Below are positions 718 through 63,619 of a stretch of 64,000 bases of DNA, one piece after another. Each line of letters begins with the position of its first letter. Position 1 is the first letter of the stretch. The stretch is from the IMG/VR virus record IMGVR_UViG_2880412407_000002. One strand, written 5' to 3'. Position numbers and translations under genes: made by a program. This DNA is from a virus. Its lineage: Duplodnaviria > Heunggongvirae > Uroviricota > Caudoviricetes. The notes below the pieces were generated by a model. That model was given only the letters and a program-made list of their open reading frames with translations, did no database searches and had not been told where the DNA came from.

Positions 718-730
718 ACGGAGGTCATAC

Positions 731-1153: not shown

Positions 1154-1488
1154 ACTTTGTCCTGAAACTGGCGCGTGAGATGGGGAGAGCCGACTGGCGC
1201 GCCATGCTTGCCGGGATGACATCCACCGAATATGCCGACTGGCGACGTTTTTACTGCACGCATTATTTTCAGGATACCCAGCTGGATATGCATTTTTCCG
1301 GGCTGACGTACGCCGTACTCAGCCTGTTTTTTTGCGATCCGGATATGCATCCGGCGGATTTCAGCCTGTTCGCTCCGGAGGCAGAGGAAGGGCAGGCGGA
1401 GACGCCGGACGAAAATGATGTACTGATGCAGAAGGCGGCGGGCCTCGCCGGTGGAGTCCGTTTCGGGGAGGAGGGAAGGAGGTTGTGA
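731..1488 (+). CDS. T: Tail assembly protein G-T, made by programmed -1 frameshift
   Basis: T frame (1180..1488) is -1 relative to G and overlaps the G 3' end; slippery A_AAA_AAG in the G zero frame. Confidence 0.7.
1129..1135 (+). promoter_or_regulatory. Putative -1 ribosomal slippery heptamer A_AAA_AAG for G-T
   Basis: Codons AAA (1130-1132) and AAG (1133-1135) are in the G frame, just before the G stop. Confidence 0.6.
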
Positions 1489-1531
1489 CAGTTATTGATG
1501 GTATCAGAGGACATTTCAGGAGGTGACCACG

Positions 1532-4176: not shown

Positions 4177-4502
4177 AAACATTTCGCTGGAAAGTGAAGC
4201 CGGATATGGAGGTGAACTCGCAGCCATCGGTGCGTGAAGTGCGTTTTGGTGACGGGTATTCGCAGCGTATGGCGGCGGGGCTGAATGCTGACCTGAAAAC
4301 ATACCGTGTGACGCTTTCCGTGACCCGGGAGGAGGCCCGGCATCTGGAAGCGTTCCTGGCAGAGCACGGTGGCTGGAAGGCGTTTCTGTGGACACCGCCT
4401 TATGCATACCGACAGATAAAGGTGACCTGTGCCGGGTGGTCTGCGCGGGTCGGGATGTTGCGCGTTGAGTTCAGCGCGGAGTTTAAGCAGGTGGTGAACT
4501 GA
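4173..4502 (+). CDS. M: Minor tail protein M
   Basis: 109 aa; start overlaps H stop; lambda order. Confidence 0.85.
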   Translation: MKTFRWKVKPDMEVNSQPSVREVRFGDGYSQRMAAGLNADLKTYRVTLSVTREEARHLEAFLAEHGGWKAFLWTPPYAYRQIKVTCAGWSARVGMLRVEFSAEFKQVVN

Positions 4503-5200
4503 TGCAGGATATTCACGAAGAAAGTCTGAACGAGTCGGTTAAATCAGAGCAGTCACCGCGGGTGGTACTCTGGGAAATCGACCTGACGGCGCAGGGCGGT
4601 GAGCGGTATTTTTTCTGCAATGAGCTGAATGAAAAAGGGGAGCCGGTGACCTGGCAGGGGCGTGAATATCAGGCGTACCCGATTGAGGGCAGCGGCTTTG
4701 AGATGAACGGAAAGGGCAGCAGTGCCCGCCCGTCGCTGACGGTGTCCAATCTGTTCGGTCTTGTCACCGGGATGGCGGAGGATTTGCAGAGCCTGGTGGG
4801 TGCCACGGTGGTCCGCCGCCGGGTGTATGCGCGTTTTCTGGATGCGGTGAACTTTGTGGCAGGCAATCCGGAGGCCGACCCGGAGCAGGAGCTGACTGAC
4901 CGGTGGGTGGTGGAGCAGATGTCAGAGCTGACGGCCATGACGGCCTCGTTTGTGCTGGCCACACCGACGGAGACGGACGGAGCGCTGTTTCCCGGTCGCA
5001 TCATGCTGGCGAACACCTGTATGTGGGATTACCGGGGAGATGAATGCGGGTATAACGGTCCTGCGGTGGCGGATGAGTTCGACAACCCCACCACGGATAT
5101 CCGTAAGGACAGATGCAGCAAGTGCATGCGCGGGTGTGAGATGCGCGGCATGGTGGCTAATTTTGGCGGTTTCCTTTCCATCAATAAACTTTCGCAGTAA
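4502..5200 (+). CDS. L: Minor tail protein L
   Basis: 232 aa; overlaps M stop (ATGA junction). Confidence 0.85.
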   Translation: MQDIHEESLNESVKSEQSPRVVLWEIDLTAQGGERYFFCNELNEKGEPVTWQGREYQAYPIEGSGFEMNGKGSSARPSLTVSNLFGLVTGMAEDLQSLVGATVVRRRVYARFLDAVNFVAGNPEADPEQELTDRWVVEQMSELTAMTASFVLATPTETDGALFPGRIMLANTCMWDYRGDECGYNGPAVADEFDNPTTDIRKDRCSKCMRGCEMRGMVANFGGFLSINKLSQ

Positions 5201-5210
5201 ATCCTGTTTT

Positions 5211-5954
5211 ATGACACAGACTGAATCAGCGATTCTGGTGCATGCCCGGCGGTGTGCGCCTGCGGAGTCGTGCGGCTTCGTGATAGGCACCCCGGAGGGC
5301 GAACGGTACCAGCCCTGCGTGAATATCTCCGCAGAGCCGGAGGCGTATTTTCGTATTGCGCCGGAAGACTGGCTGCAGGCAGAGATGCAGGGGGAGATTG
5401 TGGCGCTGGTTCACAGCCACCCTGGTGGTCTGCCCTGGCTGAGCGAGGCGGACCGGCGGCTGCAGATAAAGAGTGCCCTGCCCTGGTGGCTGGTCTGCCG
5501 GGGGGAAATTCACAAATTCCGCTGTGTGCCGCACCTGACCGGGCGTCGTTTTGAGCACGGGGTGACGGACTGTTACACCCTGTTCCGGGATGCATACCAT
5601 CTGGCGGGGATAACGCTGCCGGATTTTGTGCGTGAGGATGACTGGTGGCGCAACGGTCAGAACCTTTACCTGGACAATATGGCGGCGACTGGTTTTTACA
5701 GGATTTCCCTGCCTTCCGCACAGCCTGGCGATATCCTGCTGTGCTGCTTTGGCGCATCGGTGGCCAATCATGCCGCCATATACTGCGGCAACGGTGAGCT
5801 GCTTCACCATCTGCCTGAACAACTGAGTAAACGGGAGAGGTATTCCGAAAAATGGCAACGACGAACGCATTCAGCCTGGCGTCACCGCCACTGGCACGTA
5901 TCTGCCTTCACGGGGATTTACAACGATTTGGCCGCCGCCTCAGCCTGTATGTGA
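5211..5954 (+). CDS. K: Tail tip assembly protein K
   Basis: MTQTESAILVHARR start; HSHPGG motif typical of JAB/MPN domains; the 4950 ORF start is an upstream extension. Confidence 0.8.
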   Translation: MTQTESAILVHARRCAPAESCGFVIGTPEGERYQPCVNISAEPEAYFRIAPEDWLQAEMQGEIVALVHSHPGGLPWLSEADRRLQIKSALPWWLVCRGEIHKFRCVPHLTGRRFEHGVTDCYTLFRDAYHLAGITLPDFVREDDWWRNGQNLYLDNMAATGFYRISLPSAQPGDILLCCFGASVANHAAIYCGNGELLHHLPEQLSKRERYSEKWQRRTHSAWRHRHWHVSAFTGIYNDLAAASACM

Positions 5955-6532
5955 ACACGGCAGCGGAAGCCATCCGTGCCCTGTCGATGCAGATGCCGGG
6001 ATTCCGCCGTCAGATGAACGAAGGCTGGTACCAGATACGTATTGCCGGTGATGACACGGCACCGGAGGCGGTGTACGCCCGTCTTCACGAACAGCTGGGT
6101 GAGGGAACGGTCATCCACATTGTGCCGCGACTGGCCGGGGCCGGAAAGGGCGGACTGCAGATTGTGCTGGGGGCGGCAGCCATCGTGGGGTCGTTCTTCA
6201 CGGCCGGGGCATCAATGGCGTTATGGGGTTCAGCCCTGGCAGCCGGTGGTTTTTCTGCCACCACGATGCTGTTTTCTCTGGGGGCCAGCATGATTCTGGG
6301 TGGTGTGGCTCAGATGCTGGCCCCGAAGGCTAAAGTACCGGAGTACAAAAGCACGGATAACGGCAGACAGAACACGTACTTTTCCTCGCTGGATAACATG
6401 ATTGCTCAGGGGAACCCGATGCCGGTGCCTTACGGTGAAATGCTGGTTGGTTCACGACGGATATCCCAGGACATCAGCACCCGTGATGAGGGCGGGGGCG
6501 GAAAGGTCGTGGTTATCGGGCGGCAGAGGTAA
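5852..6532 (+). CDS. I: Tail tip assembly protein I (true start uncertain)
   Basis: Matches lambda I pattern ARICLxGDLQRFGRR; overlaps K 3' end. Confidence 0.75.
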   Translation: MATTNAFSLASPPLARICLHGDLQRFGRRLSLYVNTAAEAIRALSMQMPGFRRQMNEGWYQIRIAGDDTAPEAVYARLHEQLGEGTVIHIVPRLAGAGKGGLQIVLGAAAIVGSFFTAGASMALWGSALAAGGFSATTMLFSLGASMILGGVAQMLAPKAKVPEYKSTDNGRQNTYFSSLDNMIAQGNPMPVPYGEMLVGSRRISQDISTRDEGGGGKVVVIGRQR

Positions 6533-6780
6533 AAAGAATAAAAAAATCCCGCAGTGTATGGAGGCTGCGGGAACAGAAAATGAAGATTAACCACAGGGAG
6601 TTTTGTTTTTATTGGCCCGAAAAAACTGTAACGCCCGGGAATGATATCTGCCACGGGGGCGTACAGAAAATGTGAAGAAATTCAGAAATTTTATTCCGTC
6701 ATGACACAGGCACCCTCCGGGGTGCCTGTCGTTTTTGGGGCATAAACAGATTCAGACATCAGACAGGAGAGGGGGACAGA

Positions 6781-9700
6781 GTGGGTAAAGGGGGCGGCAA
6801 GGCGCACACGCCGGTAGAGGCAAAGGACAATCTTAAGTCCACGCAGATGATGAGCGTGATTGACGCCATTGGTGAAGGGCCGATTGAAGGTCCGGTGAAG
6901 GGGCTGCAGAGTATCCTGGTGAACAAAACCCCGCTGACGGACACGGACGGTAATCCTGTGATACATGGTGTGACAGCGGTCTGGCGCGCCGGGGAGCAGG
7001 AGCAGACACCGCCGGAAGGCTTTGAGTCCTCCGGGGCGGAAACCGCACTGGGCGTGGAAGTGACGAAGGCAAAGCCGGTGACGCGCACCATTACGTCCGC
7101 GAACATTGACCGCCTGCGGGTCACCTTCGGGGTGCAGTCACTGTTGGAGACCACCTCAAAGGGCGACCGTAATCACTCTTCTGTCCGACTGCTGATTCAG
7201 TTGCAGCGTAACGGTAACTGGGTGACGGAAAAGGATGTCACCATTAACGGCAAGACCACCTCGCAGTTTCTGGCGTCGGTGATTCTGGGTAATCTGCCGC
7301 CCCGGCCCTTTAACATCCGGATGGTCAGGGAGACGGCGGACAGCACCACGGACCAGCTGCAGAATAAGACGCTCTGGTCGTCATACACCGAAATCATCGA
7401 TGTGAAACAGTGCTACCCGAACACGGCGATTGTGGGGCTGCAGGTGGATGCGGAGCAGTTTGGTGGCCAGCAGATGACGGTGAACTACCATATCCGCGGT
7501 CGCATCATTCAGGTACCGTCAAACTATGACCCGGAAAAACGCACTTACAGCGGTATCTGGGACGGCAGCCTGAAACCGGCATACAGCAATAACCCGGCCT
7601 GGTGCCTGTGGGACATGCTGACCCACCCGCGCTACGGAATGGGAAAACGTCTGGGGGCGGCGGATGTGGACAAGTGGGCGCTGTATGCCATCGGGCAGTA
7701 CTGCGACCAGACGGTCCCGGATGGTTTCGGGGGCACAGAGCCGCGGATGACCTTTAATGCGTACCTGTCACAACAGCGTAAGGCGTGGGACGTTCTCAGT
7801 GATTTCTGCTCGGCGATGCGCTGTATGCCGGTATGGAACGGGCAGACGCTGACGTTTGTGCAGGACCGTCCGTCAGATGTGGTGTGGCCCTACACAAACA
7901 GTGATGTGGTGGCTGACAATGAAGGTGTGGGATTCCGCTACAGTTTCAGCGCCCTGAAGGACCGTCATACTGCGGTGGAGGTGAATTACACCGACCCGCA
8001 TAACGGCTGGCAGACCTCCACGGAACTGGTGGAAGACCCGGAAGCCATACTGCGCTACGGACGCAACCTGCTGAAGATGGATGCGTTCGGCTGCACCAGT
8101 CGCGGTCAGGCCCACCGTGCCGGGCTGTGGGTGATAAAGACCGGACTGCTGGAAACGCAGACGGTGGATTTCACGCTCGGGTCACAGGGGCTGCGTCACA
8201 CACCCGGTGACATTATTGAAATCTGTGATAACGACTATGCCGGGACCATGACCGGCGGACGTGTCCTGTCCATCGATGCCGCCAGCCGCACCCTGACGCT
8301 GGACCGTGAGGTGACACTGCCGGAGACAGGTACATCGGCGGTGAACCTGATTAACGGCAGCGGTAAGCCGGTGAGTGTGGACATCACCGCACACCCCGCG
8401 CCGGACCGGATACAGGTCAGTACCCTGCCTGATGGTGTGGAGACATACGGGGTGTGGGGACTCTCCCTGCCGTCACTGCGCCGTCGCCTGTTCCGCTGTG
8501 TCTCCATCCGGGAAAACACGGACGGCACCTTTGCCATCACGGCGGTGCAGCACGTACCGGAAAAGGAAGCCATCGTGGATAACGGGGCCAGCTTTGAGCC
8601 GCAGTCAGGCACCCTGAACAGCGTCATCCCTCCGGCAGTGCAGCACCTGACGGTGGAGGTGAGCGCAGCTGACGGCCAGTATCTGGCGCAGGCGAAATGG
8701 GACACGCCGCGGGTGGTGAAGGGCGTGCGCTTCAGTCTGCGCCTGACCAGTGGAAGCGGTGAGGACAGCCGTCTGGTGACCACCGCCATCACCGCGGATA
8801 CAGAGCACCGTTTCAGCGGTCTGCCGCCGGGGGAATACACCCTGACGGTCAGGGCGATTAACAGTTATGGCCAGCAGGGGGAACCGGCCACCACCACGTT
8901 CAGGATTAATGCACCTGCGGTACCCGCCACGATTGAGCTGACACCGGGCTATTTTCAGATAACAGCGGTCCCGCGTCTTGCGGTGTATGACCCGACGGTA
9001 CAGTTTGAGTTCTGGTTTTCGGAGACAAAAATCGCAGACACATCTCAGGTGGAAACCTCTGCCCGTTATCTGGGGACCGGCAGTCAGTGGAGTGTATCCG
9101 GCCCGCACATTAAGCCCGGGAAGGATTTCTGGTTTTACGTGCGCAGCGTCAACCTGGTGGGGAAATCTGCTTTTGTGGAAGCCAGTGGCCGGGCCAGCAA
9201 TGATGCAGAAGGGTATCTGGGGCTGTTTCGGGAAAAAATAGGAAAACTGCATCTGGCTCAGGGGCTGTGGGAGCTGATAGATAACAGCCAGCTTGCGGAT
9301 GAGATGGCGGAGATGAAGACCTCCATCACCGAAACCCGCAATGAAATCACACAGACGGTCAGTAAAACGCTGGAGGACCAGAGCGCCATCATACAGCAGA
9401 TACAGCGCGTGCAGAAGGACACAAATGATGACCTTGCTGCACTTTACATGCTGAAGGTACAGAAAACAAAAAATGGCATACCCTATGTTGCCGGTATTGG
9501 AGCGGGGATTGAGGATACTGATGGCCAGCCACTGAGCAACATACTGCTGCTGGCTGACCGTATCGCGATGATAAATCCGGAGAGCGGCAACAGCACGCCG
9601 TTATTTGTGGCGCAGGGGAATCAGCTGTTCATGAACGACGTGTTCCTGAAACGACTGTTTGCGGTGAGCATCACGTCATCCGGCAATCCTCCGGCATTTT

Positions 9701-10257
9701 CCCTGACGCCGGACGGGCGACTGACGGCGAAAAATGCGGATATCAGTGGCAGTGTGAATGCGAACTCAGGGACGCTCAACAACGTCACGATTAATGAGAA
9801 CTGTCAGATTAAGGGGAAACTGTCAGCCAACCAGATTGAAGGCGATATTGTCAAAACGGTCAGCAAGTCTTTCCCCCGCACGAGCACTTATGCCAGTGGC
9901 ACCATCACGGTAAGAATCAGTGATGATCAGAAGTTTGACCGGCAGGTCATGATACCGCCAGTGTTATTCCGCGGTGGTAAGCATGAGAATTTCAACAGTA
10001 ATAACCAACAGTCATACTGGTATTCAACCTGCCGGTTAAGAGTGACCCGCAATGGTCAGGAGATTTTTAATCAGTCCACGACGGATGCTCAGGGCGTATT
10101 TTCCTCAGTTATAGATATGCCTGCCGGACAGGGGACGCTGACACTGACATTCACCGTATCTTCATCAGGAGCGAATAACTGGACACCAACAACCAGTATC
10201 AGCGATCTGCTGGTTGTGGTGATGAAAAAATCCACAGCAGGTATCAGTATCAGCTGA
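6781..10257 (+). CDS. J: Tip attachment / host specificity protein J (GTG start)
   Basis: 1158 aa; lambda J-like N-terminus [23 protein letters not shown]-terminal region diverges from copy B. Confidence 0.9.
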
Positions 10258-10323
10258 ATTTTATAACCCAGAACGGGCGTCAGAAATGACGCCTTTTTTA
10301 TTGCAGAAAAGCGAGAGGTAATT

Positions 10324-10922
10324 ATGCGTAAACTTTATGCCGCCATTTTGTCCGCAGCCATCTGTCTGGCCGTATCCGGCGCGCCTGCATGGGCGTCTGA
10401 GCAGCAGGCCACGCTGAGCGCGGGGTATCTTCATGCCCGGACGAGCGCTCCCGGCAGCGATGATCTTAACGGGATTAACGTGAAATACCGTTATGAGTTT
10501 ACGGACACACTGGGGATGGTGACGTCGTTCAGCTATGCAGGAGACAAGAATCGCCAGATTACCCGTTACAGCGATACCCGCTGGCATGAAGATTCCGTTC
10601 GTAACCGCTGGTTCAGCGTAATGGCGGGGCCGTCTGTGCGCGTGAATGAATGGTTCAGCGCGTATGCGATGGCGGGTGTGGCTTACAGCCGTGTGTCGAC
10701 TTTCTCCGGGATTATCTTCGCGTAACTGACAACAAGGGGAAAACGCACGATGTGCTGACCGGAAGTGATGACGGTCGCCACAGCAACACGTCTCTGGCGT
10801 GGGGAGCTGGCGTGCAGTTTAACCCGACCGAATCCGTGGCCATTGATATTGCTTATGAAGGTTCTGGCAGTGGTGACTGGCGCACTGACGGGTTCATCGT
10901 GGGTGTTGGTTATAAATTCTGA
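10324..10922 (+). pseudogene. lom: Outer membrane protein Lom, frame broken near 10708-10710
   Basis: Two ORFs (10324..10725, 10650..10922) together match the intact 199-aa copy at 59696..60295; GGG here versus GGGG there. Confidence 0.8.
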
Positions 10923-10986
10923 TTAGCCAGGTAACACAGTGTTATGACAGCCCGCCGGTTCAGGCGGGCTTTTTTGTGGGGTGAAT

Positions 10987-12298
10987 ATGGCAGTAAAGAT
11001 TTCAGGTGTACTGAAAGACGGCACAGGAAAACCGGTAGAGAACTGCACCATTCAACTGAAAGCCAGACGGACCAGCAGCACGGTGGTGGTGAACACGGTG
11101 GCCTCTGAAAATCCGGATGAAGCCGGTCGTTACAGCATGGACGTTGAGTACGGTCAGTACAGAGTCATTCTGTTGGTGGAAGGATTCCCGCCGTCACATG
11201 CCGGGACCATCACCGTGTATGAAGATTCTCAACCCGGTACGCTGAATGATTTTCTCGGTGCCATGTCGGAGGATGACGTCCGGCCGGAGGCACTGCGCCG
11301 TTTTGAACTGATGGTGGAAGAGGTGGCGCGTCACGCTGAGGAGGCGAAGAAGAATGCCGGAGAGGCGGAGACGTCAGCAAGGAATGCCGGCATATCAGCC
11401 AGTCAGGCAGAAAAGAGCGCTGCACATGCTGACACTTCAGCAGGATATGCATCGGAGTCAGCCCGGCAGGCGGCAGAAAGTGCAGCCTCAGCAAAGCAGT
11501 CAGAGGAGGCGTCCTCGTCCTCGGCCTCTGAGGCCGCTCAAAAAGCCAGTGAGTCATCACAAAGTGCAGCAGAAGCTGAATTGTCAAGAAAGACGGCAGA
11601 AAGTGCAGCCGGTAATGCAGCCAGGGATGCAACGACCGCAACAGAAAAAGCCCGGGAGTCAGCAGAAAGCGCACAGTCAGCGGAACAAAGCAGGATAGCG
11701 GCGGAAGAAGCCGTAAACAGAATCCCCACCGTGGTGGGACCTCCCGGGCCAAAGGGGAACAGGGGCCCGCGGGTCCTCAGGGCTGAAGGGGGATAAGGGA
11801 GAGCGTGGTGACACCGGCCCTGTCGGGGCAACCGGCGAACGGGGACCGGCAGGTGATGCTGGTCCGGCAGGCCCGCAGGGGCCGAAAGGTGACAGGGGAG
11901 AGCGGGGAGAGACCGGTCTGACGGGAAATGCAGGTCCACAGGGTCCAAAGGGAGATACCGGTGCGGCAGGCCCGGCAGGCCCACAGGGACCGAAAGGAGA
12001 AACAGGTGCGGCTGGCCCGGTGGGGGCAACCGGACCTCAGGGACCGAAGGGCGACCCGGGGGAGACACAAATCCGTTTTCGTCTGGGGCCGGCGAGCATT
12101 ATTGAGACAAACAGCAATGGCTGGTTCCCGGATACAGATGGCGCACTCATCACCGGACTGACCTTTCTTGACCCCAAAGATGCCACACGGGTTCAGGGAC
12201 TGTTTCAGCATTTGCAGGTCAGATTTGGCGACGGGCCGTGGCAGGATGTCAAGGGGCTGGATGAAGTGGGCAGTGATACAGGCAGAACAGGAGAATGA
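10987..12298 (+). pseudogene. stf: Side tail fibre with collagen-like Gly-X-Y repeats, two frame breaks in G runs (about 11754 and 11780-11792)
   Basis: ORFs 10981..11796 and 12020..12298 match the intact copy at 60360..61673. Confidence 0.75.
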
Positions 12299-12299
12299 C

Positions 12300-12569
12300 A
12301 TGAATATACTAAAAAAACTTATGCAGCGTCTGTGCGGTTGCGGAAAGCATGATGACCGTGAACACGGGGAGTTACTTACAGCACAGCTGCGACTGGGGCC
12401 GGCAGACATCCTGGAGTCAGATGAGAATGGCATTATCCCGGAGCAGGACAGGGTAATCACGCAGGTGGTGATACTGGATGCGGATAAAAAGCAGATACAG
12501 TGCGTGGTAAGACCGCTGCAAATCCTGCGTGCTGACGGGACGTGGGAAAATATTGGCGGGATGAAGTAA
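12300..12569 (+). CDS. Conserved 89-aa protein immediately after the tail fibre gene, function unknown
   Basis: MNILKKLMQRLCGCGKHD start; second copy at 61675..61944 and a 3' fragment at 62650..62783. Confidence 0.6.
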   Translation: MNILKKLMQRLCGCGKHDDREHGELLTAQLRLGPADILESDENGIIPEQDRVITQVVILDADKKQIQCVVRPLQILRADGTWENIGGMK

Positions 12570-23064: not shown

Positions 23065-23574
23065 ATGAGTAATGACAAAAAATTGACACTGAGCGTTTAC
23101 GAAAACAGTCCGCACATCTGGCGTGGCGGTTTATCTGATGTGGAGCTGGCAGAGTGGTTGATACATAAAGCTAATGCGCTGCTCTGGCGTTTGTCAGCCA
23201 GAGAACAGCGCAAGGAAACCAGAATAAAGCTGGCTGATGCAGAAGCGTGTGCCGGGCTTATTGAGGATTATACAAATCTTGGTATTTCTTCAGCAGAGAG
23301 TGATCCCATTCAGCCTCTGAGCAGGGAGTCAATCCAGCACGCTGGTTGTATGGCACATCTTGTAACTGCTCGTCAACATGAGGTGGGTATTGGATCACTT
23401 CCGGTGGGATATTCGCTGATTCCAGAGCTGGTTGAAGCAAGAAAATCAGTTCAGAAAAAGAGAGATGACGCACTTCAATTATTGAGAGAGCACTATGGCG
23501 CGATACCAGAATGCGAACAGCATCGATACCCTGAAGGTTATGAATGGATGCAGTCTCTTTTTGAAGTTCGCTAA
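23065..23574 (+). CDS. YdaU-like protein
   Basis: 169 aa from MSNDKKLTLSVYENSPHIWRGG. Confidence 0.45.
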   Translation: MSNDKKLTLSVYENSPHIWRGGLSDVELAEWLIHKANALLWRLSAREQRKETRIKLADAEACAGLIEDYTNLGISSAESDPIQPLSRESIQHAGCMAHLVTARQHEVGIGSLPVGYSLIPELVEARKSVQKKRDDALQLLREHYGAIPECEQHRYPEGYEWMQSLFEVR

Positions 23575-23791
23575 TCAATATGTCGAGACGAAGGTATGTT
23601 TCGGCGCGCAGCCAGGCTCTGTAATCCGGGAGCATTTCGGGGCTGTTACACCAGCGGTTTGTTGCTGCAACATTTAATACATGAGCCTGATAAAGGCTTT
23701 TCAAAAAATACATGTCGAACCTCCTCTGGTTCTGTCGATTGGGAACCACAGATTATATCCGGAGGAAGGTTCGGCACCAGATGAGGTAGCC

Positions 23792-26878: not shown

Positions 26879-27229
26879 TGAAAATAACATGAAACCTTTG
26901 GATTCTGGTGTTTCAGTGGATGGGAAAAGAGCAGATACATAGAAAATGAATAGCAATAATTCACAGTCTGGATGTTGTTTGTATGCTTATAAAATGATCC
27001 TAGTATGCATTGCCGGAGTTGAATCAGCTCCAATGAAGAAACTGAGAGGAGTATTTAGAAGATAGCTAAATGGATGTAATTATTAGTATCTAAAAAATAG
27101 TATTTTTGAAATGGGTCTAAGAACACAACAATGTACAAATGAGAAGTTATCTTTTAATATGTTCAAAGACCCATTAGGATTGATATCAGTTATGTTAGCT
27201 AGATTGATAAAGTGATTACATATTTTCTG

Positions 27230-28003
27230 TTATATGCTGAAATGAATAATGCTATTCCAGAGTGCAGCAGAGAAAGTCTCCTGATGATTGAGCTCTGGAA
27301 ATTGTACAATAGAAAAATTACTGTATTTTTCTGTCAAAATATTTCTCAAAACAGATTCCGCTTTGATGGCTTCAGGATATAAAGATGCGGAGTAATCAAG
27401 GCTAAGATTTCCGTTAAGCAAGCATATACTTTTAGTGTGCTTTGATTCTGATATATCATCTTTAATTATCTTGATGATTCTTTCATTCTGCCATAGAAGT
27501 GATGGTGCAGATATATAATAATAGTTAAAGCATGAATTATTTTTTAAGCAATCAAGCACAAAAATAGCACCTAGCGAGTGCCCACATATACCGATTCTGG
27601 AACTGTTCGGAGCAATAGTACTAACCCATGGCATGATCTGAGTTAGTAATAATTCTCGGAAAGACTGGCTTCCTCCACCAGTAAAGTAGATCCATGCTGG
27701 TTTAGAGTTATCAACAATAGCATTTTCACCATCAGGAGTATAATCGTAAGCACGGCGATGAATGCTAAGGTTATTCCAAGATTCATAACCAAGTGTAACT
27801 AACACTGGTGGATTGGGTAGTGCATCAATAACAGGCAGAATATCAGAAATGTAATTGTTGGCACTATTCCCATCAAGTATATAAAGAGTTGCATTATTTT
27901 TTTTAATGTTTTTTGGAGTAAAAATACATATTTTATATTTGGTGTCATGGTTAATTGAGTTAAATATGCGTGTTTGACAATGAATGTCCATATGTTTAGT
28001 CAT
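27230..28003 (-). CDS. Alpha/beta-hydrolase esterase (enterochelin-esterase-like family)
   Basis: 257 aa; nucleophile elbow GHSLG (ICGHSLGAIF); strongly AT-rich gene and flanks. Confidence 0.65.
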   Translation of the reverse strand: MTKHMDIHCQTRIFNSINHDTKYKICIFTPKNIKKNNATLYILDGNSANNYISDILPVIDALPNPPVLVTLGYESWNNLSIHRRAYDYTPDGENAIVDNSKPAWIYFTGGGSQSFRELLLTQIMPWVSTIAPNSSRIGICGHSLGAIFVLDCLKNNSCFNYYYISAPSLLWQNERIIKIIKDDISESKHTKSICLLNGNLSLDYSASLYPEAIKAESVLRNILTEKYSNFSIVQFPELNHQETFSAALWNSIIHFSI

Positions 28004-28607
28004 GCGTTCTCCCCATGAGCATTAAAGGATGCTTAAGATATGCTATGTCACTGATAAAAAATTTGTTGTGTGTGTTTAGTTATTTTATCTACCTCCATTA
28101 TGATTTAAGACTGATATATGTTATCAGCAAAGGTACATCGTTATTATTTTACCTGTCAATACATTTGATATTGATTATCGTTTACATCGCTTGCTTAGGA
28201 AATTGAAGGCAGGTAACTATCATGTCAATGAACTAACCCACAGTCTAACGTACTTCTTTCCCCAATCACCAACAACCAAATTCCTGTTATCACCACTGGG
28301 ATTTTGGCGCAACTTCATGGTGCAGAGGTAAATAGCATCAAGCAAAATCTCTTTTTCCGTTGTTGTCCTTATGGGACGTCTGTCTTTCTGACCGATTTCA
28401 TATTGGCGAGGTAATGGGAAGTTAAGTAGAATAGCTGCGGGTGCTTGAGGCTATCTGCCTCGGGCATGAACACCAACGGCAGATAGAGAAAAGCCCCAGT
28501 TAACATTACGCGTCCTGCAAGACGCTTAACATTAATCTGAGGCTCAATCTATGAACGGCAAATCTAGGTTAGCCTCTTACGTGCCGAAAGGCAAGGAGAA
28601 GCAGGCT

Positions 28608-29209: not shown

Positions 29210-29283
29210 TGTGCGGGTATTACTTCGACCTGTTCTGGTACCGGAACTCGGTCTGGTTATCGTTAAGCCAGGCCGTGAATCCA

Positions 29284-30259
29284 TGCGGGTATTTCATGGC
29301 GGCAGGGTGCTGGTGGAGTCTGAACCGAAAAGCATGCGTAATCTGCCGTCCGGGGTCGTTCCTGCCGTTCGCCAGCCGCTGGCGGAAGATAAATCATTAC
29401 TGCCATTTTTCAGCAATGAGCGTGTGATTCGTGCTGCTGGTGGCGCTGGTGCACTGTCTGACTGGTTATTACGTCACGTTAAATCCTGCCAGTGGCCTCA
29501 TGGTGATTATCATCACAGCGAAACTGTCATACATCGTTACGGTACCGGCGCGATGGTGTTGTGCTGGCACTGCGACAACCAGCTGCGCGACCAGACATCC
29601 GAATCACTTGAGCAACTTGCTCAACAAAACCTGTCAGCATGGATGATTGACGTCATCCGCCACGCAATGAATGGCATACAGGAACGGGAATTATCGCTGG
29701 CTGAATTATCCTGGTGGGCAGTCTGCAATCAGGTGGTGGACGCATTACCTGAGGCAGTATCGCGTCGTTCTCTGGGATTACCGGCGGAAAAAATCCGCTC
29801 CGTATACCGTGAAAGCGACATCATACCGGGAGAACAGACCGCCACCAGCATACTGAAGCAGCGCACAAAAATATTGCGCTACCGCCTCACACCCACCAGC
29901 AACAGAACCCACCACAGGAAAAGACGGTGGTCAGCATTGCCGTTGATCCGGAGTCTCCGGAATCCTTCATGAAACGACCTAAACGTCGCCGCTGGGTAAA
30001 TGAGAAATACACACGCTGGGTAAAGACACAGCCGTGTGCGTGTTGTGGTAAGCCAGCGGACGATCCTCATCATCTGATTGGTCATGGTCAGGGTGGAATG
30101 GGAACAAAATCCCACGATATTTTCACGCTACCGCTGTGTCGGGAGCATCACAACGAGCTTCATGCGGATCCGCTGGCGTTCGAAGAAAAGCATGGTTCCC
30201 AGGTTGATTTAATTTTTCGTTTTCTTGATCACGCTTTTGCAACCGGCGTGCTCGGGTAA
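29284..30259 (+). pseudogene. DUF968 (YdfU-like) protein, apparently split into two frames near 29900-29930
   Basis: ORFs 29211..29972 and 29927..30259; second part has CxxC...HH zinc-binding-like motif; may be two genes. Confidence 0.45.
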
Positions 30260-30271
30260 AAGAGGTTACTG

Positions 30272-30643
30272 ATGCGTATAGAGTTTGTTTTGCCTTACCC
30301 GCCGACGGTGAACACCTACTGGCGACGTCGTGGCAGCACATATTTTGTATCAAAAGCCGGTGAGCGTTATCGCCGGGCTGTGGCGCTTATTGTTCGCCAG
30401 CAGCGGCTGAAATTAAGCCTGTCCGGACGGCTGGCAATAAAAATTATTGCAGAACCACCGGATAAGCGCCGCCGTGACCTGGACAACATTCTGAAAGCAC
30501 CGCTGGATGCGCTGACGCATGCGGAAGTGCTCATTGATGACGAGCAGTTTGATGAAATCAATATTGTGCGCGGTCAGCCTGTGCCAGGTGGACGGCTGGG
30601 CGTGAAGATTTACGAAATCAGAGGTGGTAACGATGGCGCGTGA
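30272..30643 (+). CDS. rusA: Holliday junction resolvase RusA
   Basis: [21 protein letters not shown]...[14 protein letters not shown]. Confidence 0.85.
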
Positions 30644-31004
30644 TATCCAGATGGTTCTTGAGCGATGGGGGGCATGGGCAGCAAATAATCATGAAGATGT
30701 AACATGGCCCTCGATAGCTGCTGGTTTTAAAGGATTAATCCCGACTAAAGTGAAATCACGTCCTCAGTGTTCTGATGATGACGCCATGATAATTTGTGGT
30801 TGTATGGCACGATTAAACAAGAATAATCAGTATTTGCACGATTTGTTGGTGGATTATTACGTAGGTGGAATGACATTTATGGCTCTTGCACGTAAGCATA
30901 GATGTTCTGATGGGCTTATTGGTAAAAGGCTTTATAAAGCGGAAGGTATTATTGAAGGAATGCTTATGGCTCTGAATGTCCGGTTAGATATGGATATGCG
31001 GTAG
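30633..31004 (+). CDS. Late-gene antitermination protein Q-like
   Basis: 123 aa; position after rusA and before the late region. Confidence 0.6.
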
Positions 31005-31155
31005 GGATATATAGTGATGAGGGTTATGTTTTCTATGTTTATAATTAACATGTTTATTTTTTGATGGTCATGTATTGTGGAAGGTAGATAAAATGTTGCC
31101 TGGTGAATTGAAAATATTGATAATCAATCTTCATCATTAAATAAAAGGAGTGCTT

Positions 31156-31974
31156 ATGTGGATTGTGTTAGTACTGTCACTGTCAACTCTCAGTTGGCAT
31201 AAGGTAGTGGCTTTTTCATTGTTGACGGTGTCTGTTGTCCTGGCTGTGCTTAATGATATTATTGATTGGTCGGTGTTATTTTTTGTTGCTACAATCGTTT
31301 TTTTTATTATTTTGAAGTTCAACTGGAAATATAACGCCTGGGCTAAATCTATATATGAAGTTGGCATAGTTTTATCAGCCATAGCATTATCTTTCCATCT
31401 ATGGCCAGGGTTTCACAATCCTGTAGTGCTAAATTCTGTTACTGTTGGCCCTCAGAGTACTCCCTATACAATGTATTTTAATTTTGATAAAGCGCTGGTG
31501 CCATTTTTGTTAGTCCTGTGTACATCTTCTTTGTTTAAAAAAGAAGTAAAATCAGAAGTGTCTTTGTGGAAGTGGGGGGCTCTGTCGCTCTCTGTTCCTC
31601 TTATCCTGTTTTTGGCTGTTTTTTTTGGTGGATTAAAGCCAGAGATTCATTTTCCTGAGTGGTTGCCAGAGTTTATATTGGCTAATTTGTTTTTTGTGTC
31701 TCTGGCAGAGGAATCATTATTTAGAGGGTATATTCAATCACGGCTATCAGAAGTAACGTCTCCATTGGTTGCATTAATTGTGGCGGCTTTGTTGTTTGGT
31801 TTTTATCACTATTCAGGTGGTGCTTTACTTGTATTATTTGCCACGTTATCTGGTGTTGTGTATGGATTGTCATGGATGTGGAGTGGGCGTTTGTGGGTTG
31901 CCACCCTTTTCCATTTTGGTTTGAATCTGTGTCACTTGTTATTCTTTACCTATCCATTTTTAAAACATAATTGA
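31156..31974 (+). CDS. CPBP-family (CAAX protease / Abi) intramembrane metalloprotease
   Basis: Multi-pass membrane protein with EExxxR (AEESLFRGY), FxxxH (FGFYHY) and HFGLN motifs; AT-rich. Confidence 0.75.
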   Translation: MWIVLVLSLSTLSWHKVVAFSLLTVSVVLAVLNDIIDWSVLFFVATIVFFIILKFNWKYNAWAKSIYEVGIVLSAIALSFHLWPGFHNPVVLNSVTVGPQSTPYTMYFNFDKALVPFLLVLCTSSLFKKEVKSEVSLWKWGALSLSVPLILFLAVFFGGLKPEIHFPEWLPEFILANLFFVSLAEESLFRGYIQSRLSEVTSPLVALIVAALLFGFYHYSGGALLVLFATLSGVVYGLSWMWSGRLWVATLFHFGLNLCHLLFFTYPFLKHN

Positions 31975-32260
31975 TTTTTTCTATGGTTTTAAATTTATAA
32001 GACTGAAAAATAGCAGGACGTGACATTTGCATGAAAAATATGCACGGCAAAGCATTTACGTACGTAAAAAATCAGGTATGCTGTTAAGAGTGGTTATTTC
32101 GCCGCATAGCTTGACCCCGCCTCTGAGCGGGTTTTTTGTGCCCGCAAAGTAGCGCAGTGCGTTAAATGTGCTGGTAGTTATTAATACAGGTCTTTCAGCT
32201 TGCTGGCTTTTTCGGCAAGAGTTATTGGTGTGTCACGTTAACCGGAAAGGGTAAAAAGAC

Positions 32261-32458
32261 ATGCTGAAACAGCAGGATATGACAGAAACCGCCAGAGTTG
32301 TGTTTGATGAATTAAGCGTCACCGAACCGGCGACAGTCGGGGAGATTGCGCAGAATACTTACCTTTCACGCGAACGCTGCCAGTTAATACTGACCCAGCT
32401 TGTTATGGTGGGTCTGGCAGACTATCAGTGCGGTTGTTACAGACGCCTTCAGTCCTGA
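32261..32458 (+). CDS. Small putative DNA-binding protein
   Basis: 65 aa; Shine-Dalgarno-like sequence upstream. Confidence 0.4.
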   Translation: MLKQQDMTETARVVFDELSVTEPATVGEIAQNTYLSRERCQLILTQLVMVGLADYQCGCYRRLQS

Positions 32459-32595
32459 AGGCTTTTTTATTTGTGGTAAATGGGCGGCTGGTGGGTGTTA
32501 GCGGCACCTGTCAGTCCTTTGCTTATGTGTTGATGATAATTTACCTTTTGGGGCTATAATTGAACTAACCAATTGCTAATGAAAGTAAAATTATA

Positions 32596-33309
32596 ATGGT
32601 TGTTGTCTGTTCAGTTATCATGGTTTGCTCCCCAATTAATATTTTTCTTGAAAAGGATACGTTGTCACTTAAGCCCGGCTCAGTCGTTCTGGCCACCAAA
32701 TGCATCAGGGCGCTTTTCCTTATGCATTATGGCAAAGTTAAAATTTTCGATATAAACCATTCCATAGTAAGTCAATATCTGGAAATTCAGCATAAGCTGA
32801 CAAGAACTCATCTGACTGACGTTCCGCTTTATCTGTCACTGGAACCCAACAACCCTGCGTTGGCTGAGGCTTTAATTACCAGCCAGAGATTTTCCGGAGA
32901 TACCACGGATATGTTTCTTATGATGGCATGCCTGTCGCTGTTTGAATCAGATGAACGGATATTATTATTTTTAAGTGGATGTTTATCCAGTATAAGTGCC
33001 AAAGTCAGGGCGATAATTCAGACAGATATATCAGCAAGCTGGACGCTTGGTGCGATTGCGTTACGCCTGCATATGAGTGAGAGTTTGTTAAAGATAAAAC
33101 TGAAAAATGAAGGGCACATGTTCAGTCGCTTGTTGCTGGAAGAGCGGATGCGTGTTGCTGTGAATATGTTATGTTCCCGGCATGGATATGGACAGGCTGT
33201 AGCAGAAAAATGCGGTTATTCAAGCTGGTCCTACTTTATTTCTGTATTTCACCGCTATTATGGCTTCCCGCCAGACAGATATGTATCCAGGCAAGGGCTT
33301 GATTATTGA
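32596..33309 (+). CDS. AraC-family transcriptional regulator
   Basis: C-terminal AraC HTH (WTLGAIALRLHMSESLLKIKLK...GYSSWSYFISVFHRYYGFPP); AT-rich. Confidence 0.75.
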   Translation: MVVVCSVIMVCSPINIFLEKDTLSLKPGSVVLATKCIRALFLMHYGKVKIFDINHSIVSQYLEIQHKLTRTHLTDVPLYLSLEPNNPALAEALITSQRFSGDTTDMFLMMACLSLFESDERILLFLSGCLSSISAKVRAIIQTDISASWTLGAIALRLHMSESLLKIKLKNEGHMFSRLLLEERMRVAVNMLCSRHGYGQAVAEKCGYSSWSYFISVFHRYYGFPPDRYVSRQGLDY

Positions 33310-33337
33310 TTTTCATCTGATTATTATTTTTTGACCC

Positions 33338-33413
33338 GGCCCTTTAGCTCAGTGGTGAGAGCGAGCGACTCATAATCGCCAGGTCGCTGGTTCAAATCCA
33401 GCAAGGGCCACCA
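33338..33413 (+). tRNA. ileZ: tRNA with CAU anticodon (ileZ-like tRNA-Ile2 or tRNA-Met)
   Basis: 76 nt cloverleaf folded by hand; anticodon loop cuCAUaa; CCA end. Confidence 0.85.
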
Positions 33414-33420
33414 TCACATA

Positions 33421-33497
33421 CCGCCATTAGCTCATCAGGAAAGAGCGCCAGCCTTCGAAGCTGGCTGCGCGGGGTTCAAGTCCCCGATGGCGGTCCA
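33421..33497 (+). tRNA. argN: tRNA-Arg (anticodon UCG)
   Basis: 77 nt; anticodon loop cuUCGaa; 7-bp acceptor stem; CCA end. Confidence 0.8.
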
Positions 33498-33510
33498 TTA
33501 TCTGCATCAT

Positions 33511-33587
33511 GCGTTGTTAGCTCAGCCGGACAGAGCAATTGCCTTCTAAGCAATCGGTCAGTGGTTCGACTCCACTACAACGCGCCA
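33511..33587 (+). tRNA. argO: tRNA-Arg (anticodon UCU)
   Basis: 77 nt; anticodon loop cuUCUaa; 7-bp acceptor stem; CCA end. Confidence 0.85.
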
Positions 33588-33756
33588 CACTTATTTTCCA
33601 GGCTCGCTTCGGCGGGCCTTTTTTGTATCTGCGCCACGCCCGGCGCATATCAACCACAGAGCCTTTCGGGGGTGAGCTTACGGAGTGGTCAGTGTGACTT
33701 TCTCTGTGGGCAGATCGCTCCCGGGCGTTGGCTCACCCACCCAAAGGAACGTCACG

Positions 33757-34188
33757 ATGTTTGGAATCTTCAAAAAGAAAACCCGCAGAGCGGCAGCGGA
33801 AATTAAAAAGTTTGAGAAACGCGATCTGGCACAGGCGGTGATTAACGCTGCATACCTGGTGGCCTATGCAGATGGTGAATGCGAGGCATCCGAGAAAGCG
33901 AAGATCGAACAGGTCTTACGTAATCAGCCTGCGTTGTCTGCGTTTACCTCGGAAATTAATGCGATTAGCGCAACCATTATCGGTCAGCTGGATACGAACT
34001 TTAAAATTGGTCGTCGTGCGGCGTTACGTGAGATCGAGGATGTGAAACACGATACGCGTGAAGCGGAAGATGTGCTGGATGTGGCGGTGGCCATTGCGGA
34101 GGCAGACGGCGAAATTGAGCCGGAAGAGCGCAAGGTGCTGGAAGAGATTGCCGGTGTTCTGGGTCTTCGTCTGGAGAATCACCTGTGA
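33757..34188 (+). CDS. TerB-like (tellurite-resistance TerB family) protein
   Basis: 143 aa from MFGIFKKKTRRAAAEIKK; acidic C-terminus. Confidence 0.5.
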   Translation: MFGIFKKKTRRAAAEIKKFEKRDLAQAVINAAYLVAYADGECEASEKAKIEQVLRNQPALSAFTSEINAISATIIGQLDTNFKIGRRAALREIEDVKHDTREAEDVLDVAVAIAEADGEIEPEERKVLEEIAGVLGLRLENHL

Positions 34189-34666: not shown

Positions 34667-36603
34667 ATGTCGATTAAACATTATGATGTTGTCAGGGCGG
34701 CGTCGCCGTCAGACCTTGCGGAAAAGCTGACACACAAACTGAAAGAGGGCTGGCAGCCGTTTGGTAGTCCGGTGGCCATCACGCCTTATACTCTGATGCA
34801 GGCCATTGCGGCGGAAGGTGATGTCACCACACCTGTGTTGGTGAAGCCGTCGGATGGAGAAGGCACAGTAATCAGCGCCACCAGAGACACGGAGTATTAC
34901 TTTGTTGTGGTTCTGGCGGGGCAGTCAAACAGCATGGCATATGGTGAAGGCCTTCCGCTGCCGGAGACATATGACCGTCCGGACCCGCGTATTAAGCAGC
35001 TGGCGCGCCGCAGTACGGTGACACCGGGCGGTGCAGCATGCAAATATAACGACATCATTCCGGCGGACCATTGTCTGCATGATGTGCAGGACATGAGCCG
35101 CCTTAACCATCCGAAAGCGGACCTGTCAAAGGGGCAGTACGGAACCGTGGGGCAAGGGCTGCATATCGCCAAAAATTGCTGCCGTTTATACCGGCGAATG
35201 CGGGCATTCTGCTGGTTCCGTGCTGTCGTGGTGGTTCAGCGTTCACCACCGGAGCCGATGGCACATACAGTGACGCGAGTGGTGCCTCGGAGAATTCAAC
35301 CCGCTGGGGTGTGGACAAGCCGCTGTATAAGGACCTTATCGGTCGAACAAAAGCAGCACTGAAGAAGAACCCGAAAAATGTGCTGTTTGCCGTGGTGTGG
35401 ATGCAGGGGGAATTTGATTTTGGCGGTACGCCGGTAAATCACGCAGCACAGTTTGGTGCGCTGGTTGATAAATTCCGTGCAGACCTGGCGGATATGGCAG
35501 GTCAGTGCGTCGGTGGCTCTGCTGGCGGTGTTCCCTGGATATGTGGAGATACGACGTATTTCTGGAAGCAGAAGAACGAATCCTCGTACCAGACGGTGTA
35601 CGGCAGCTACAAAAACAAAACGGAAAAGAATATCCATTTCGTACCGTTCATGACGGATGAGAACGGGGTGAATGTGCCGACGAACAAACCGGAAGAAGAC
35701 CCGGACATTCCGGGTATCGGATATTACGGTTCGAAATGGCGTGACAGCTCAGCCACCTGGACGTCACAGGACAGGGCGAGCCATTTCAGTTCATGGGCTC
35801 GCCGCGGGATTATTTCCGACCGTCTGGCAACGGCGATTTTGCGCCATGCGGGAAGAGTGGCGCTAAACGCGGGGGCATCATCGACAGTATCAGAGGTGCG
35901 CCCGTCATCGCCTTCCGGTGCAGAAGCCACAGGCGTCACAGCACTGCTCTCTTACCTTGCCAGCGAGTCAGAGGGAAGCCTGAAAGTACAGGGATGGTCA
36001 GCCAGTGGCGGCAGGGCAGAAGTGGTCAGCGATGCGGAGGGAACCGGAGGTAAGGCAGTGAAGCTGACCAAGGAAGCCGGTAAAAGCAGCTGGGTGCTGG
36101 AGTACGCCGCAGGCAACGGTGCGGCTCTGTTACAGAAAGGGGGGCAGATTCGCTGCCGCTTTAAGGTTTCGGGAGCGCTGGCTGCGAACCAGTATGTTAT
36201 GGCGTTTTACTGGCCGGTATCTTCACTGCCACAGGGCGTTGCCCTGACCGGAGACGGGGGGAATAACCTGCTGGCAGCGTTCTACATCCAGACAGATGCA
36301 AAAGACCTGAATGTGATGTACCACAATGCGAAAGTGGCGACAAACAACCTGAAACTGGGAACCTTTGGCGCATTTGATAACGAATGGCATACGCTGGCTT
36401 TCCGCTTTGCCGGGAATAACAGCCTTCAGGTGACGCCGGTTATTGATGGTCAGGTTGGCACACCGTTCACGCTGACGCAGTCACCGGTCAGTGCCTTTGC
36501 GGCGGATAAACTGCATGTGACAGACATTACCAGAGGTGCGACTTACCCGGTACTGATAGACAGCATTGCGGTGGAAGTGAACAGCACAGACACTGCGGCA
36601 TGA
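34667..36603 (+). pseudogene. nanS-p: Prophage sialate O-acetylesterase NanS-p-like, frame broken in A5 run (35171-35175)
   Basis: ORFs 34667..35362 and 35176..36603; SGNH-type VVLAGQSN motif; position after the tRNAs. Confidence 0.65.
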
Positions 36604-39644: not shown

Positions 39645-39959
39645 ATGCTACATGATCACCTGGCAGAATGTCTGGAGAAAAAAGGACTGTACCGGAGAGC
39701 TGCTGAACGATGGGCAAAAGTGATGGTACAGCTAAGTGATGACCAGAAAAGAAAAGTGGCGGCACAGAAACGAGCAGAGTGTTTGCGTAAGGCGCGCCGG
39801 ACTCCGGTTTCACCGGTGAACCTGACCGAAATAAAACAAGCGGTCAACAGACTACATTCTGAGTTGGGAATGGGATTTGAAGAGCGGCGGGTATTCCGAC
39901 GATATAAAGGGACAGGAGAACAGAATACGTCCGGAAACGCGCGGTCAAAAAAATGCTAA
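39645..39959 (+). CDS. PerC-family (Pch-like) regulator, tentative
   Basis: 104 aa; LEKKGLYRRAAERWAKVM resembles PerC; very AT-rich upstream region. Confidence 0.45.
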   Translation: MLHDHLAECLEKKGLYRRAAERWAKVMVQLSDDQKRKVAAQKRAECLRKARRTPVSPVNLTEIKQAVNRLHSELGMGFEERRVFRRYKGTGEQNTSGNARSKKC

Positions 39960-40040
39960 AAAATATCTGAGAGAGTTATTGCCTGTTACCATAAGAAAAA
40001 GCGACTTTAGTGGTCGCTTTTTGTGTCATATATAAGTCGT

Positions 40041-62837: not shown

Positions 62838-63419
62838 ATGCCATTAACCTCAGATATTAATTCATCTTCGTTCCATCTTGGAATGGAGGTTCTTCGTGCT
62901 CAAGTTGCAGCCACTGGGCGTGGAGAATTTACAATGGGTGGTGAAACTGTCAGAATTGAATATAGTCCAACAGATGGGCGCTTTCTGGCCAGCGATGGCA
63001 CTGGGGGATTATTTACTGAATTATTGCTTTTAGGGTTCAATAATGGGCCTCAAGCTCTTGGCGAGAGAATGTTAAGTATTCTTTCAGGATCAGATGCAGG
63101 TGAAACACAATCGCAAGTGACTCCTCAGGATAAAATATATCAATGTAAGTTTTCTGTTAATACAGAGAGCCTCCAGTGTCCCTCTGATGCAACTCGATGC
63201 CCAATTATACTGGAAACACCAGAAGAAGGGGTATTTGTCAAAAATTCAGATAGTTCAGCAGTATGCACTTTATTTGATGTTGATGCACTTTCTCGCGTGG
63301 TTAATGACGGTTCAGTTCACCCTCTGACACGAGCTCCAATAACCCCATCAATGATTGTTAAACCAGAAGAGTGTAAATATGACCCTGCAAGGGGAAGCTT
63401 TATTATAAAAGATAGTTAA
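62838..63419 (+). CDS. Putative type III effector, NleG-like (U-box-type C-terminus), tentative
   Basis: 193 aa, AT-rich, in the effector locus after tail fibre genes; family assignment from recall only. Confidence 0.45.
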   Translation: MPLTSDINSSSFHLGMEVLRAQVAATGRGEFTMGGETVRIEYSPTDGRFLASDGTGGLFTELLLLGFNNGPQALGERMLSILSGSDAGETQSQVTPQDKIYQCKFSVNTESLQCPSDATRCPIILETPEEGVFVKNSDSSAVCTLFDVDALSRVVNDGSVHPLTRAPITPSMIVKPEECKYDPARGSFIIKDS

Positions 63420-63619
63420 GATGTTTCAAATGAAACAATATTAACTTCCGATAATTTATATAAAAACACCACAGGCATTCGGGGCCTGTGGTTGGTAAAA
63501 CAATATAATACGCGAGTTATTTTTCATGAGCTGGAGAGAAAACAATCAAGGTAAGTGGTATTATTTCACAAAATACCGGGCACTTTCTGGTGCCGCATCG
63601 TTCAGAGCTTCGGTGTATA

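Follow-up and report, generated by a model that had tools for sequence, protein, structure and literature searches.

What is carried in the AT-rich DNA between the antiterminator gene Q and the tRNA genes of a lambdoid prophage, and do the genes found there form one functional unit? The question is raised by positions 31005-33309 of a prophage sequence (IMG/VR record IMGVR_UViG_2880412407_000002), of which the whole 64,000-nucleotide stretch was analysed and is referred to here as the window. A first-pass annotation, made from the sequence without database searches, had described three genes in this region, encoding a CPBP-family intramembrane protease, a small helix-turn-helix (HTH) protein and an AraC-type regulator, in an arrangement that it did not recognise. 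It had proposed that they act as an immunity or superinfection-exclusion module or, alternatively, as a moron that regulates virulence or acid-resistance genes of the host. The region can be identified with high confidence as the psrA locus of a lambdoid prophage of the Sp4 type that resides in LEE-positive Escherichia coli; three independently inherited modules lie there between Q and the tRNAs.

The locus is present in prophage Sp4 of strain Sakai

The stretch is 99% identical over 2.6 kb to ECs1084-ECs1087 plus ileZ-argN-argO of prophage Sp4 in E. coli O157:H7 Sakai. The gene order is the same in both: ECs1084 (Q), ECs1085 (CAAX amino terminal protease), ECs1086, ECs1087 (AraC family), ileZ, argN and argO. 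In a megablast survey of 5,426 complete E. coli genomes, 539 contained at least 80% of the 2.3-kb stretch, 529 of them at 99% identity or more. The cassette of O121:H19 strains is 100% identical, that of O26:H11 and others 99.9%, and the whole window is 99.9% identical to the chromosome of E. coli 2014C-3599. RefSeq labels the three products as CPBP family intramembrane glutamic endopeptidase, hypothetical protein and helix-turn-helix domain-containing protein. The locus is already annotated and widespread, and its regulator is the known PsrA. The arrangement that had not been recognised, and that was to lose its novelty if the cassette proved widespread and annotated, is thus that of the Sakai reference genome and of the 539 genomes above.

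The list of open reading frames (ORFs) and Pfam agree with the three plus-strand genes described between Q and ileZ-argN-argO. The features of the region are as follows.

30624-31004, + strand: Q antiterminator gene, Q21 family (126 amino acids, PF06530; RefSeq start at ~30633)
31005-31155, + strand: Q-CPBP spacer, guanine-cytosine (GC) content 0.28, with an AAGGAG ribosome-binding site before the CPBP ATG
31156-31974, + strand: gene for a CPBP (Rce1-like) intramembrane glutamic protease, 272 amino acids from the ATG, ~8 transmembrane helices; equals ECs1085
32055-32096, + strand: putative late promoter PR', placed by sequence comparison
32116-32137, + strand: putative intrinsic terminator tR', hairpin CCCGC-CUCUGA-GCGGG followed by six T
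32261-32458, + strand: gene for a 65-amino-acid putative winged-helix protein; equals ECs1086, phiP27 L23 and ECs1779; first ORF past the putative tR'
32445-32468, + strand: second intrinsic terminator, GCCUUCA-loop-UGAAGGC followed by six T, overlapping the stop codon of the small gene
32533-32560, + strand: sigma-70-like promoter of psrA, with a perfect TATAAT at 32555-32560
32596-33309, + strand: psrA, gene for an AraC/XylS regulator of 237 amino acids that resembles YdeO and GadX
33338-33587, + strand: phage tRNA array ileZ (CAT), argN (TCG) and argO (TCT), from tRNA calls and Rfam

For the CPBP gene an alternative GTG start is present at 31150. The Q protein matches PF06530 (E=4.9e-52) and the PDB entries of Q21, 6P18 and 6JNX (E=7e-8), and is 99% identical to ECs1084 of Sakai. 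The AT-richness seen in the first pass was confirmed, though it is unevenly spread: the GC content of the three-gene stretch is 0.401 versus 0.519 for the window, a value as low occurring in only 2.6% of equal-sized windows, and ranges from 0.28 in the Q-CPBP spacer over 0.38 in the CPBP gene and 0.42 in the AraC gene to 0.505 in the small ORF. As had also been described, stx was not found after the tRNAs in the window; genes for TerB, DUF3927 and a SASA-family esterase follow there instead. A search of positions 30500-34000 against Rfam (E<=1) gave nothing beyond the three tRNAs and a sub-threshold match, on the antisense strand over one tRNA, to a plastid RNA family.

The AraC-type regulator is PsrA

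The AraC protein is 100% identical at the amino acid level to the full-length ECs1087 ORF. The gene ecs1087 of Sp4 was named psrA in a 2026 paper from the Tree laboratory, the describers of the Psr regulators (PMC13502914). PsrA raises GadE and YhiF, by which type III secretion (LEE) is repressed, and PsrB, a 90%-identical paralogue, increases acid resistance and binds to the promoters of gadE and hdeA; psr genes are confined to prophages, where they occur with effector loci and Pch regulators (reviewed in PMC10877973, PMC8565820). Such company is also found on the window prophage, which carries a PerC/Pch-family gene (~39647-39961, in the lysis-terminase interval) and an NleG-family effector gene (62840-63420, after the tail fibre genes). 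As for PsrA/PsrB (and also PatE) of O157:H7, psrA in the window is located just upstream of the ileZ/arg tRNA genes. The protein is the same, whereas the host background here is another, non-O157 E. coli. The alternative raised in the first pass, a moron that regulates host genes for virulence or acid resistance, was right for the AraC gene, as its product is identical to PsrA, for which an effect on gadE/yhiF and, through these, on LEE type III secretion has been published (PMC10877973, PMC8565820). An action on gadE/yhiF and on type III secretion is taken here from the reviews on the identical protein and would be expected by analogy.

Pfam assigns HTH_18 (E=5.7e-9) and HTH_AraC (E=1.2e-8) domains to the protein. 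Its best NCBIfam matches, both below cut-off, are YdeO (E=9e-30, residues 1-229) and GadX (E=4e-25), the chromosomal AraC-family GAD activators, and this resemblance fits an action of PsrA on gadE and the GAD system. However, PsrA scores 104 bits against an equivalog cut-off of 348 bits for YdeO, which makes it a member of a phage-borne paralogous family that is neither YdeO nor GadX. The window protein and the AraC copy of the EDL933 OI-57 region share 91% identity. Since this value matches the published identity of 90% between PsrA and PsrB (PMC8565820), the OI-57 copy (z2104) is presumed to be PsrB. The two psr-family places found by megablast in most O157 genomes correspond to the Sp4-type copy, seen in Sakai, and the OI-57 copy, seen in EDL933.

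The psrA promoter has 10 of 12 matches to the consensus and is kept in four psr-family loci, one of them without the small gene. Because of this conserved promoter of its own, psrA is predicted to be expressed in the lysogen. In phiSTEC1575-Stx2k (positions 4479-6802), a psr-family AraC gene with 89% identity is located directly upstream of the tRNAs and stx2k; this direct adjacency would place the Psr-type regulator and stx2k on one late transcript.

The three genes assort independently

Each of the three genes was counted separately among the 5,426 genomes.

CPBP gene: 573 genomes, 578 places, 1-2 per genome
psr-family gene: 725 genomes, 1,323 places
small-gene block: 2,152 genomes (40%), 4,649 places, up to 7 per genome

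The CPBP gene was found without the AraC gene in three kinds of loci. In the bovine E. coli prophage OkiPb01712 (Q 80% and CPBP 62% identical) it is followed by a methylase remnant and tRNA-Arg/Gly, in a Shigella flexneri prophage (Q 82%, CPBP 59%) by tRNAs, TerB and lysis genes, and in two Logan contigs with a Q of another family (PF03589; CPBP 55%) by a holin gene. Conversely, psr-family genes adjoin tRNAs behind four different Q types, mostly without a CPBP gene. Copies without CPBP are located just before the tRNAs behind a DUF1133-type antiterminator in EDL933 OI-57 and strain EH031, behind a Q82-type Q in strain A34, where the small gene is also missing, and directly upstream of the tRNAs and stx2k in the Stx2k-converting phage. 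The small gene is followed by a DNA methylase gene in place of psr in phiP27, Stx2_EH2201 and Sakai Sp9. The paired three-gene module of the first-pass annotation was therefore not upheld: each of the three genes is distributed independently of the other two. The identities of the genes, their distribution and this independent assortment are direct observations. A functional tie of CPBP to the AraC gene was also considered and was rejected on the distribution across genomes and loci.

A conserved promoter-like block is located past the CPBP gene

In the canonical Q cassette, PR', which carries a Q-binding element, directly follows Q, and the late genes come after a pause site and a terminator (bioRxiv 10.1101/651190). 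In the window, a conserved PR' candidate was found 1.05 kb downstream of Q, past the CPBP gene and not directly after Q. It consists of the following elements.

32055-32068, + strand: upstream element of the putative PR', apparently Q-allele-specific, TTTACGTACGTAAA
32077-32082, + strand: -10-like hexamer of PR', TATGCT
32083-32096, + strand: conserved initial transcribed block, GTTAAGAGTGGTTA

A block of the form TTTACGTACGTAAA-N16-TATGNT-G(T/A)TAAGAGTG follows CPBP in three prophages whose Q proteins are 80-100% identical, the window prophage and two diverged ones with a Q of 80-82% identity. In Stx2_EH2201 and phiP27, which have a Q of the same family with 47-49% identity, TATNNT-GTTAAGAGTGGTTA and the terminator are conserved, and other repeat-like sequences stand in place of the upstream part. 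Being common to the three loci with 80-100% identical Q and different in the two with 47-49%, the upstream part is a candidate Q-binding element. In Stx2_EH2201 the conserved block comes directly after Q, and in phiP27 a GIY-YIG nuclease gene occupies the place equivalent to that of CPBP in the window. Behind a Q82-type Q, homology begins only at the terminator and the promoter block is missing. The tR' hairpin is also conserved in EH2201, phiP27, the Stx2k phage, OkiPb01712 and A34, where the bases of loop and stem differ.

The Q-CPBP spacer contains weak sigma-70-like sites and is poorly conserved compared with a prophage with an 80%-identical Q, and no intrinsic terminator was found between Q and CPBP in the window. 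A PR' inside this spacer was rejected on account of the missing terminator and the poor conservation. Because the Q is of the Q21 family, the block is conserved past CPBP, and the spacer is poorly conserved and has no terminator, we infer that PR' and tR' lie at ~32055-32137, so that the CPBP gene would separate Q from the promoter on which Q acts. With the Q21-type cassette (Q, PR' with a Q-binding element, a sigma-dependent pause and tR') the window shares a Q21-family Q, a promoter-like block and then an intrinsic terminator before the late genes, but in the window an 819-bp coding gene separates Q from the putative promoter.

The CPBP protein has intact catalytic motifs and a predicted SpdC-like fold

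All three catalytic motifs reported in the first pass are present in the CPBP protein, and its match to PF02517 (Pfam; E=1.4e-19, 70.6 bits) is above the cut-off of 22.4. The motifs are EESLFR at 185 (E185-E186-R190), FGFYH at 214 (F214-H218) and HFGLN at 253 (H253-N257), and their residues are invariant or at least 90% conserved among 42 homologues. The ratio of non-synonymous to synonymous substitution (omega) is 0.12 in comparison with the 62%-identical prophage copy, indicating purifying selection. An AlphaFold 2 (AF2) model built from the 42 homologues has a predicted local distance difference test score (pLDDT) of 95.2 and a predicted template modelling score (pTM) of 0.92. The top match of this model in the PDB by Foldseek is Staphylococcus aureus SpdC in the SagB-SpdC complex (6U0O_A; probability 0.99, template modelling score 0.47-0.51 over 230 columns), and a sequence search of the PDB with the CPBP protein gave no match. 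The window protein shares with SpdC (LyrA, 6U0O) the PF02517 match, the three motifs and a membrane fold of ~8 helices, but is only 14% identical to it.

The CPBP family includes bacteriocin-immunity proteins. Compared with the family, the window gene is without an adjacent bacteriocin, sortase-like sorting-signal or ABC-permease partner, and its NCBIfam equivalog scores are far below cut-off. Full-length homologues with ~50% identity and a conserved PGFHN...NFDKALVPF loop occur across Enterobacterales. Enterobacter, Dickeya and Hafnia have a single chromosomal copy, surrounded by unrelated housekeeping genes, and the Salmonella copy lies in an island. Since the chromosomal homologues are single-copy genes in housekeeping contexts, the phage CPBP gene looks like a captured host gene.

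A tblastn search with CPBP against 50,697 phage records returned two weak Listeria matches only, and no isolated phage was seen to carry the gene. PADLOC, run on all three proteins of the locus, gave zero families at E<=0.01, and no bacteriocin-like gene was found in the window or in eight loci with CPBP homologues. A literature search on ECs1085, ECs1086 and ECs1087 returned a single mention, that of psrA (ECs1087), and the libraries and papers searched gave no function for CPBP or the small protein. With zero PADLOC families and no bacteriocin-like neighbours at the loci examined, the immunity or abortive-infection module suggested earlier found no backing. The best guess, held at low confidence, is that CPBP acts at the level of the envelope as a lysogenic-conversion or exclusion factor.

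The 65-amino-acid gene is a conserved gene behind the putative terminator

The small gene is real, as had been stated in the first pass: omega is 0.10-0.28 in comparison with four orthologues, and the protein matches PHROG 331 with E=2e-36. Its HTH label fared less well, as the match to TrmB in Pfam (E=0.006, 16.8 bits) is below the cut-off of 25.6. A single-sequence AF2 model shows three helices at a poor pLDDT of 57, and RefSeq calls the phiP27 orthologue a TrmB family regulator. An HTH fold is therefore no more than plausible for the 65-amino-acid protein.

The gene was found in 55 phage records, comprising Stx2a, 2c, 2d, 2e and 2k phages, SfV, a cdt phage and Citrobacter, Klebsiella and Hafnia phages. 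The proteins phiP27 L23, Sakai ECs1779 and those of PHROG 331, which are encoded upstream of stx2 in Stx2a/c/d/e/k phages, are 92-98% identical to the window protein and their genes have the same place after the terminator. In the phiP27 L23 and ECs1779 systems a DNA methylase gene is next, whereas in the window psrA is next and the prophage is without stx. ECs1086 in Sakai Sp4 (piece positions 23344-23583) has a 1-bp deletion in comparison with the window, and the resulting frameshift alters the C-terminus. The small gene is probably inactive in the Sakai reference strain.

Other features of the window

Positions 1-16215 show two prophages in tandem, the integrase gene (~15196-16215, - strand) of the Sp4-like prophage being adjoined by espK (~13023-14384, - strand) and the tail module of another lambdoid prophage. 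A RelE/RelB toxin-antitoxin pair (21354-21832, - strand) adjoins the prophage repressor gene. A second, strongly AT-rich block with a GC content of 0.30-0.36 is located at 27000-28300, between the replication genes and hokD, and contains an alpha/beta hydrolase gene (~27230-28003, - strand) that looks like another cargo gene.

In comparison with 2014C-3599, the window has 1-bp deletions in A-runs at 29867 and 35171. The former splits a DUF968 gene into ORFs 29211-29972 and 29927-30259, and the latter splits a gene for a SASA/NanS-p-like esterase into ORFs 34667-35362 and 35176-36603. The two frameshifts are either real pseudogenes or homopolymer sequencing errors.

Alternative explanations

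Several points weigh against the identification of the region as a psrA locus with three independent modules and a late promoter past CPBP. The naming of psrA is in conflict, as two reviews give it as z1789 in OI-50 whereas PMC13502914 gives ecs1087 of Sp4. In the resequenced EDL933 an OI-50-type prophage (1630000-1679000; with nleL, espN and espK) has no AraC gene after Q, and neither Sakai Sp9 nor Sp10, examined for psrA, contains an AraC gene. Among the 573 CPBP-bearing genomes, 539 also hold at least 80% of the whole cassette. The most likely reason for the co-occurrence of CPBP and psrA is a single, nearly clonal prophage lineage (at least 99% identity), and a functional coupling inside that lineage may be compatible with the data. 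The -35 and -10 hexamers of the putative PR' each match the consensus at 4 of 6 positions, and the position of PR' is derived from sequence comparison alone. Finally, in one lineage a strong terminator is located between Q (PF03589, Q82-type) and CPBP, and the order of CPBP and PR' is not universal.

Adjacency, common orientation, low-GC DNA and the cassette held by 539 of the 573 CPBP-bearing genomes would suit a single module in which a membrane protease is combined with two dedicated regulators for superinfection exclusion, bacteriocin immunity or abortive infection. Such a module is very improbable: two intrinsic terminators and a separate conserved promoter split the genes, CPBP copies that have diverged to 55-62% identity still follow Q but have no AraC gene, and most psr copies are without a CPBP gene. 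In addition, PADLOC was empty, no bacteriocin-like gene was near in any locus examined, and the AraC protein already has published host targets. The late promoter might instead lie in the Q-CPBP spacer, with CPBP as the first late gene and the block at 32055-32137 as a small-RNA gene or the promoter of the small gene. This is supported by the promoter-like hexamers in the spacer, by the terminator that precedes CPBP in the Q82-type lineage and by the canonical cassette, in which PR' directly follows Q (bioRxiv 10.1101/651190). In the spacer, however, a terminator is missing and conservation between prophages with 80%-identical Q is poor, the block comes directly after Q in Stx2_EH2201, and its upstream half changes with the Q allele, all of which make a spacer promoter unlikely. 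A third explanation is that the CPBP and small genes are decaying, functionless cargo of a defective prophage, as might be suggested by the frameshifted small gene of Sakai Sp4 and the two 1-bp homopolymer frameshifts elsewhere in the window prophage. Decay is very unlikely, since both genes are intact in the window with omega well below 1, the catalytic residues of CPBP are invariant, and 55 phage records, inducible Stx2 phages among them, retain the small gene.

More weight is given to the view that CPBP on its own is an envelope lysogenic-conversion factor, either an active glutamic protease for immunity to a membrane-targeting toxin or for exclusion of incoming phage, or a modulator of a host envelope enzyme or sensor, as SpdC is for SagB. 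The invariant and fully intact catalytic motifs, the strong purifying selection (omega 0.12), the recurrence of the gene beside Q in at least four diverged prophage lineages and the full-length fold match to SpdC of the SagB-SpdC complex all favour it. It is nevertheless a tentative proposal with a chance somewhat short of even, as there is no conserved partner gene, the chromosomal homologues are found in unrelated contexts, the gene is in no deposited phage genome among the 50,697 records, and the literature search gave no experimental report on ECs1085. A further, rather unlikely possibility is that CPBP is a conserved accessory of the Q module, an active protease encoded between Q and the late promoter and deployed early on the envelope for exclusion, toxin immunity or lysis timing, and/or that late or toxin expression is tuned by the 65-amino-acid gene, which many Stx2 phages have as the first late gene before stx2; neither role has been reported.

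Proposed expression and implications

With the psrA locus seen as three modules, we infer the promoter placement, the expression logic and the CPBP role as follows. The CPBP gene would have been captured from the single-copy chromosomal family of Enterobacterales, would be read with the early/Q transcript or from a weak promoter of its own, and its product may act at the host envelope in lysogenic conversion or exclusion. The small gene would be the first Q-dependent gene, expressed only when Q allows polymerase to read through tR'. On prophage induction, psrA and the tRNAs would also be read from PR'.

If the placement of PR' and tR' is right, the lysogen would make a constitutive short RNA of ~45-50 nucleotides. 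Constitutive short RNAs have been described for other PR'-tR' units (PMC7547250). The putative RNA from 32055-32137 would be of the same class as StxS of other Q types, and it has no Rfam match.

For the locus as such little is at stake: it was already part of the Sakai reference sequence decades ago, and PsrA has been characterised as connecting prophages with acid resistance and with type III secretion. The CPBP gene places a membrane protease, catalytically intact as judged by its motifs, in about one tenth of the complete E. coli genomes, and the listed carriers are mostly of Shiga-toxin or attaching-effacing serotypes. Through the small gene, many Stx2 phages encode a putative DNA-binding protein in the interval from the late promoter to stx2. 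Together with the site after the tRNAs, where stx is located in Stx phages, the slots from Q to PR' and from the leader gene to the tRNAs give a map of cargo zones that aids the reading of Stx and non-Stx prophages alike.

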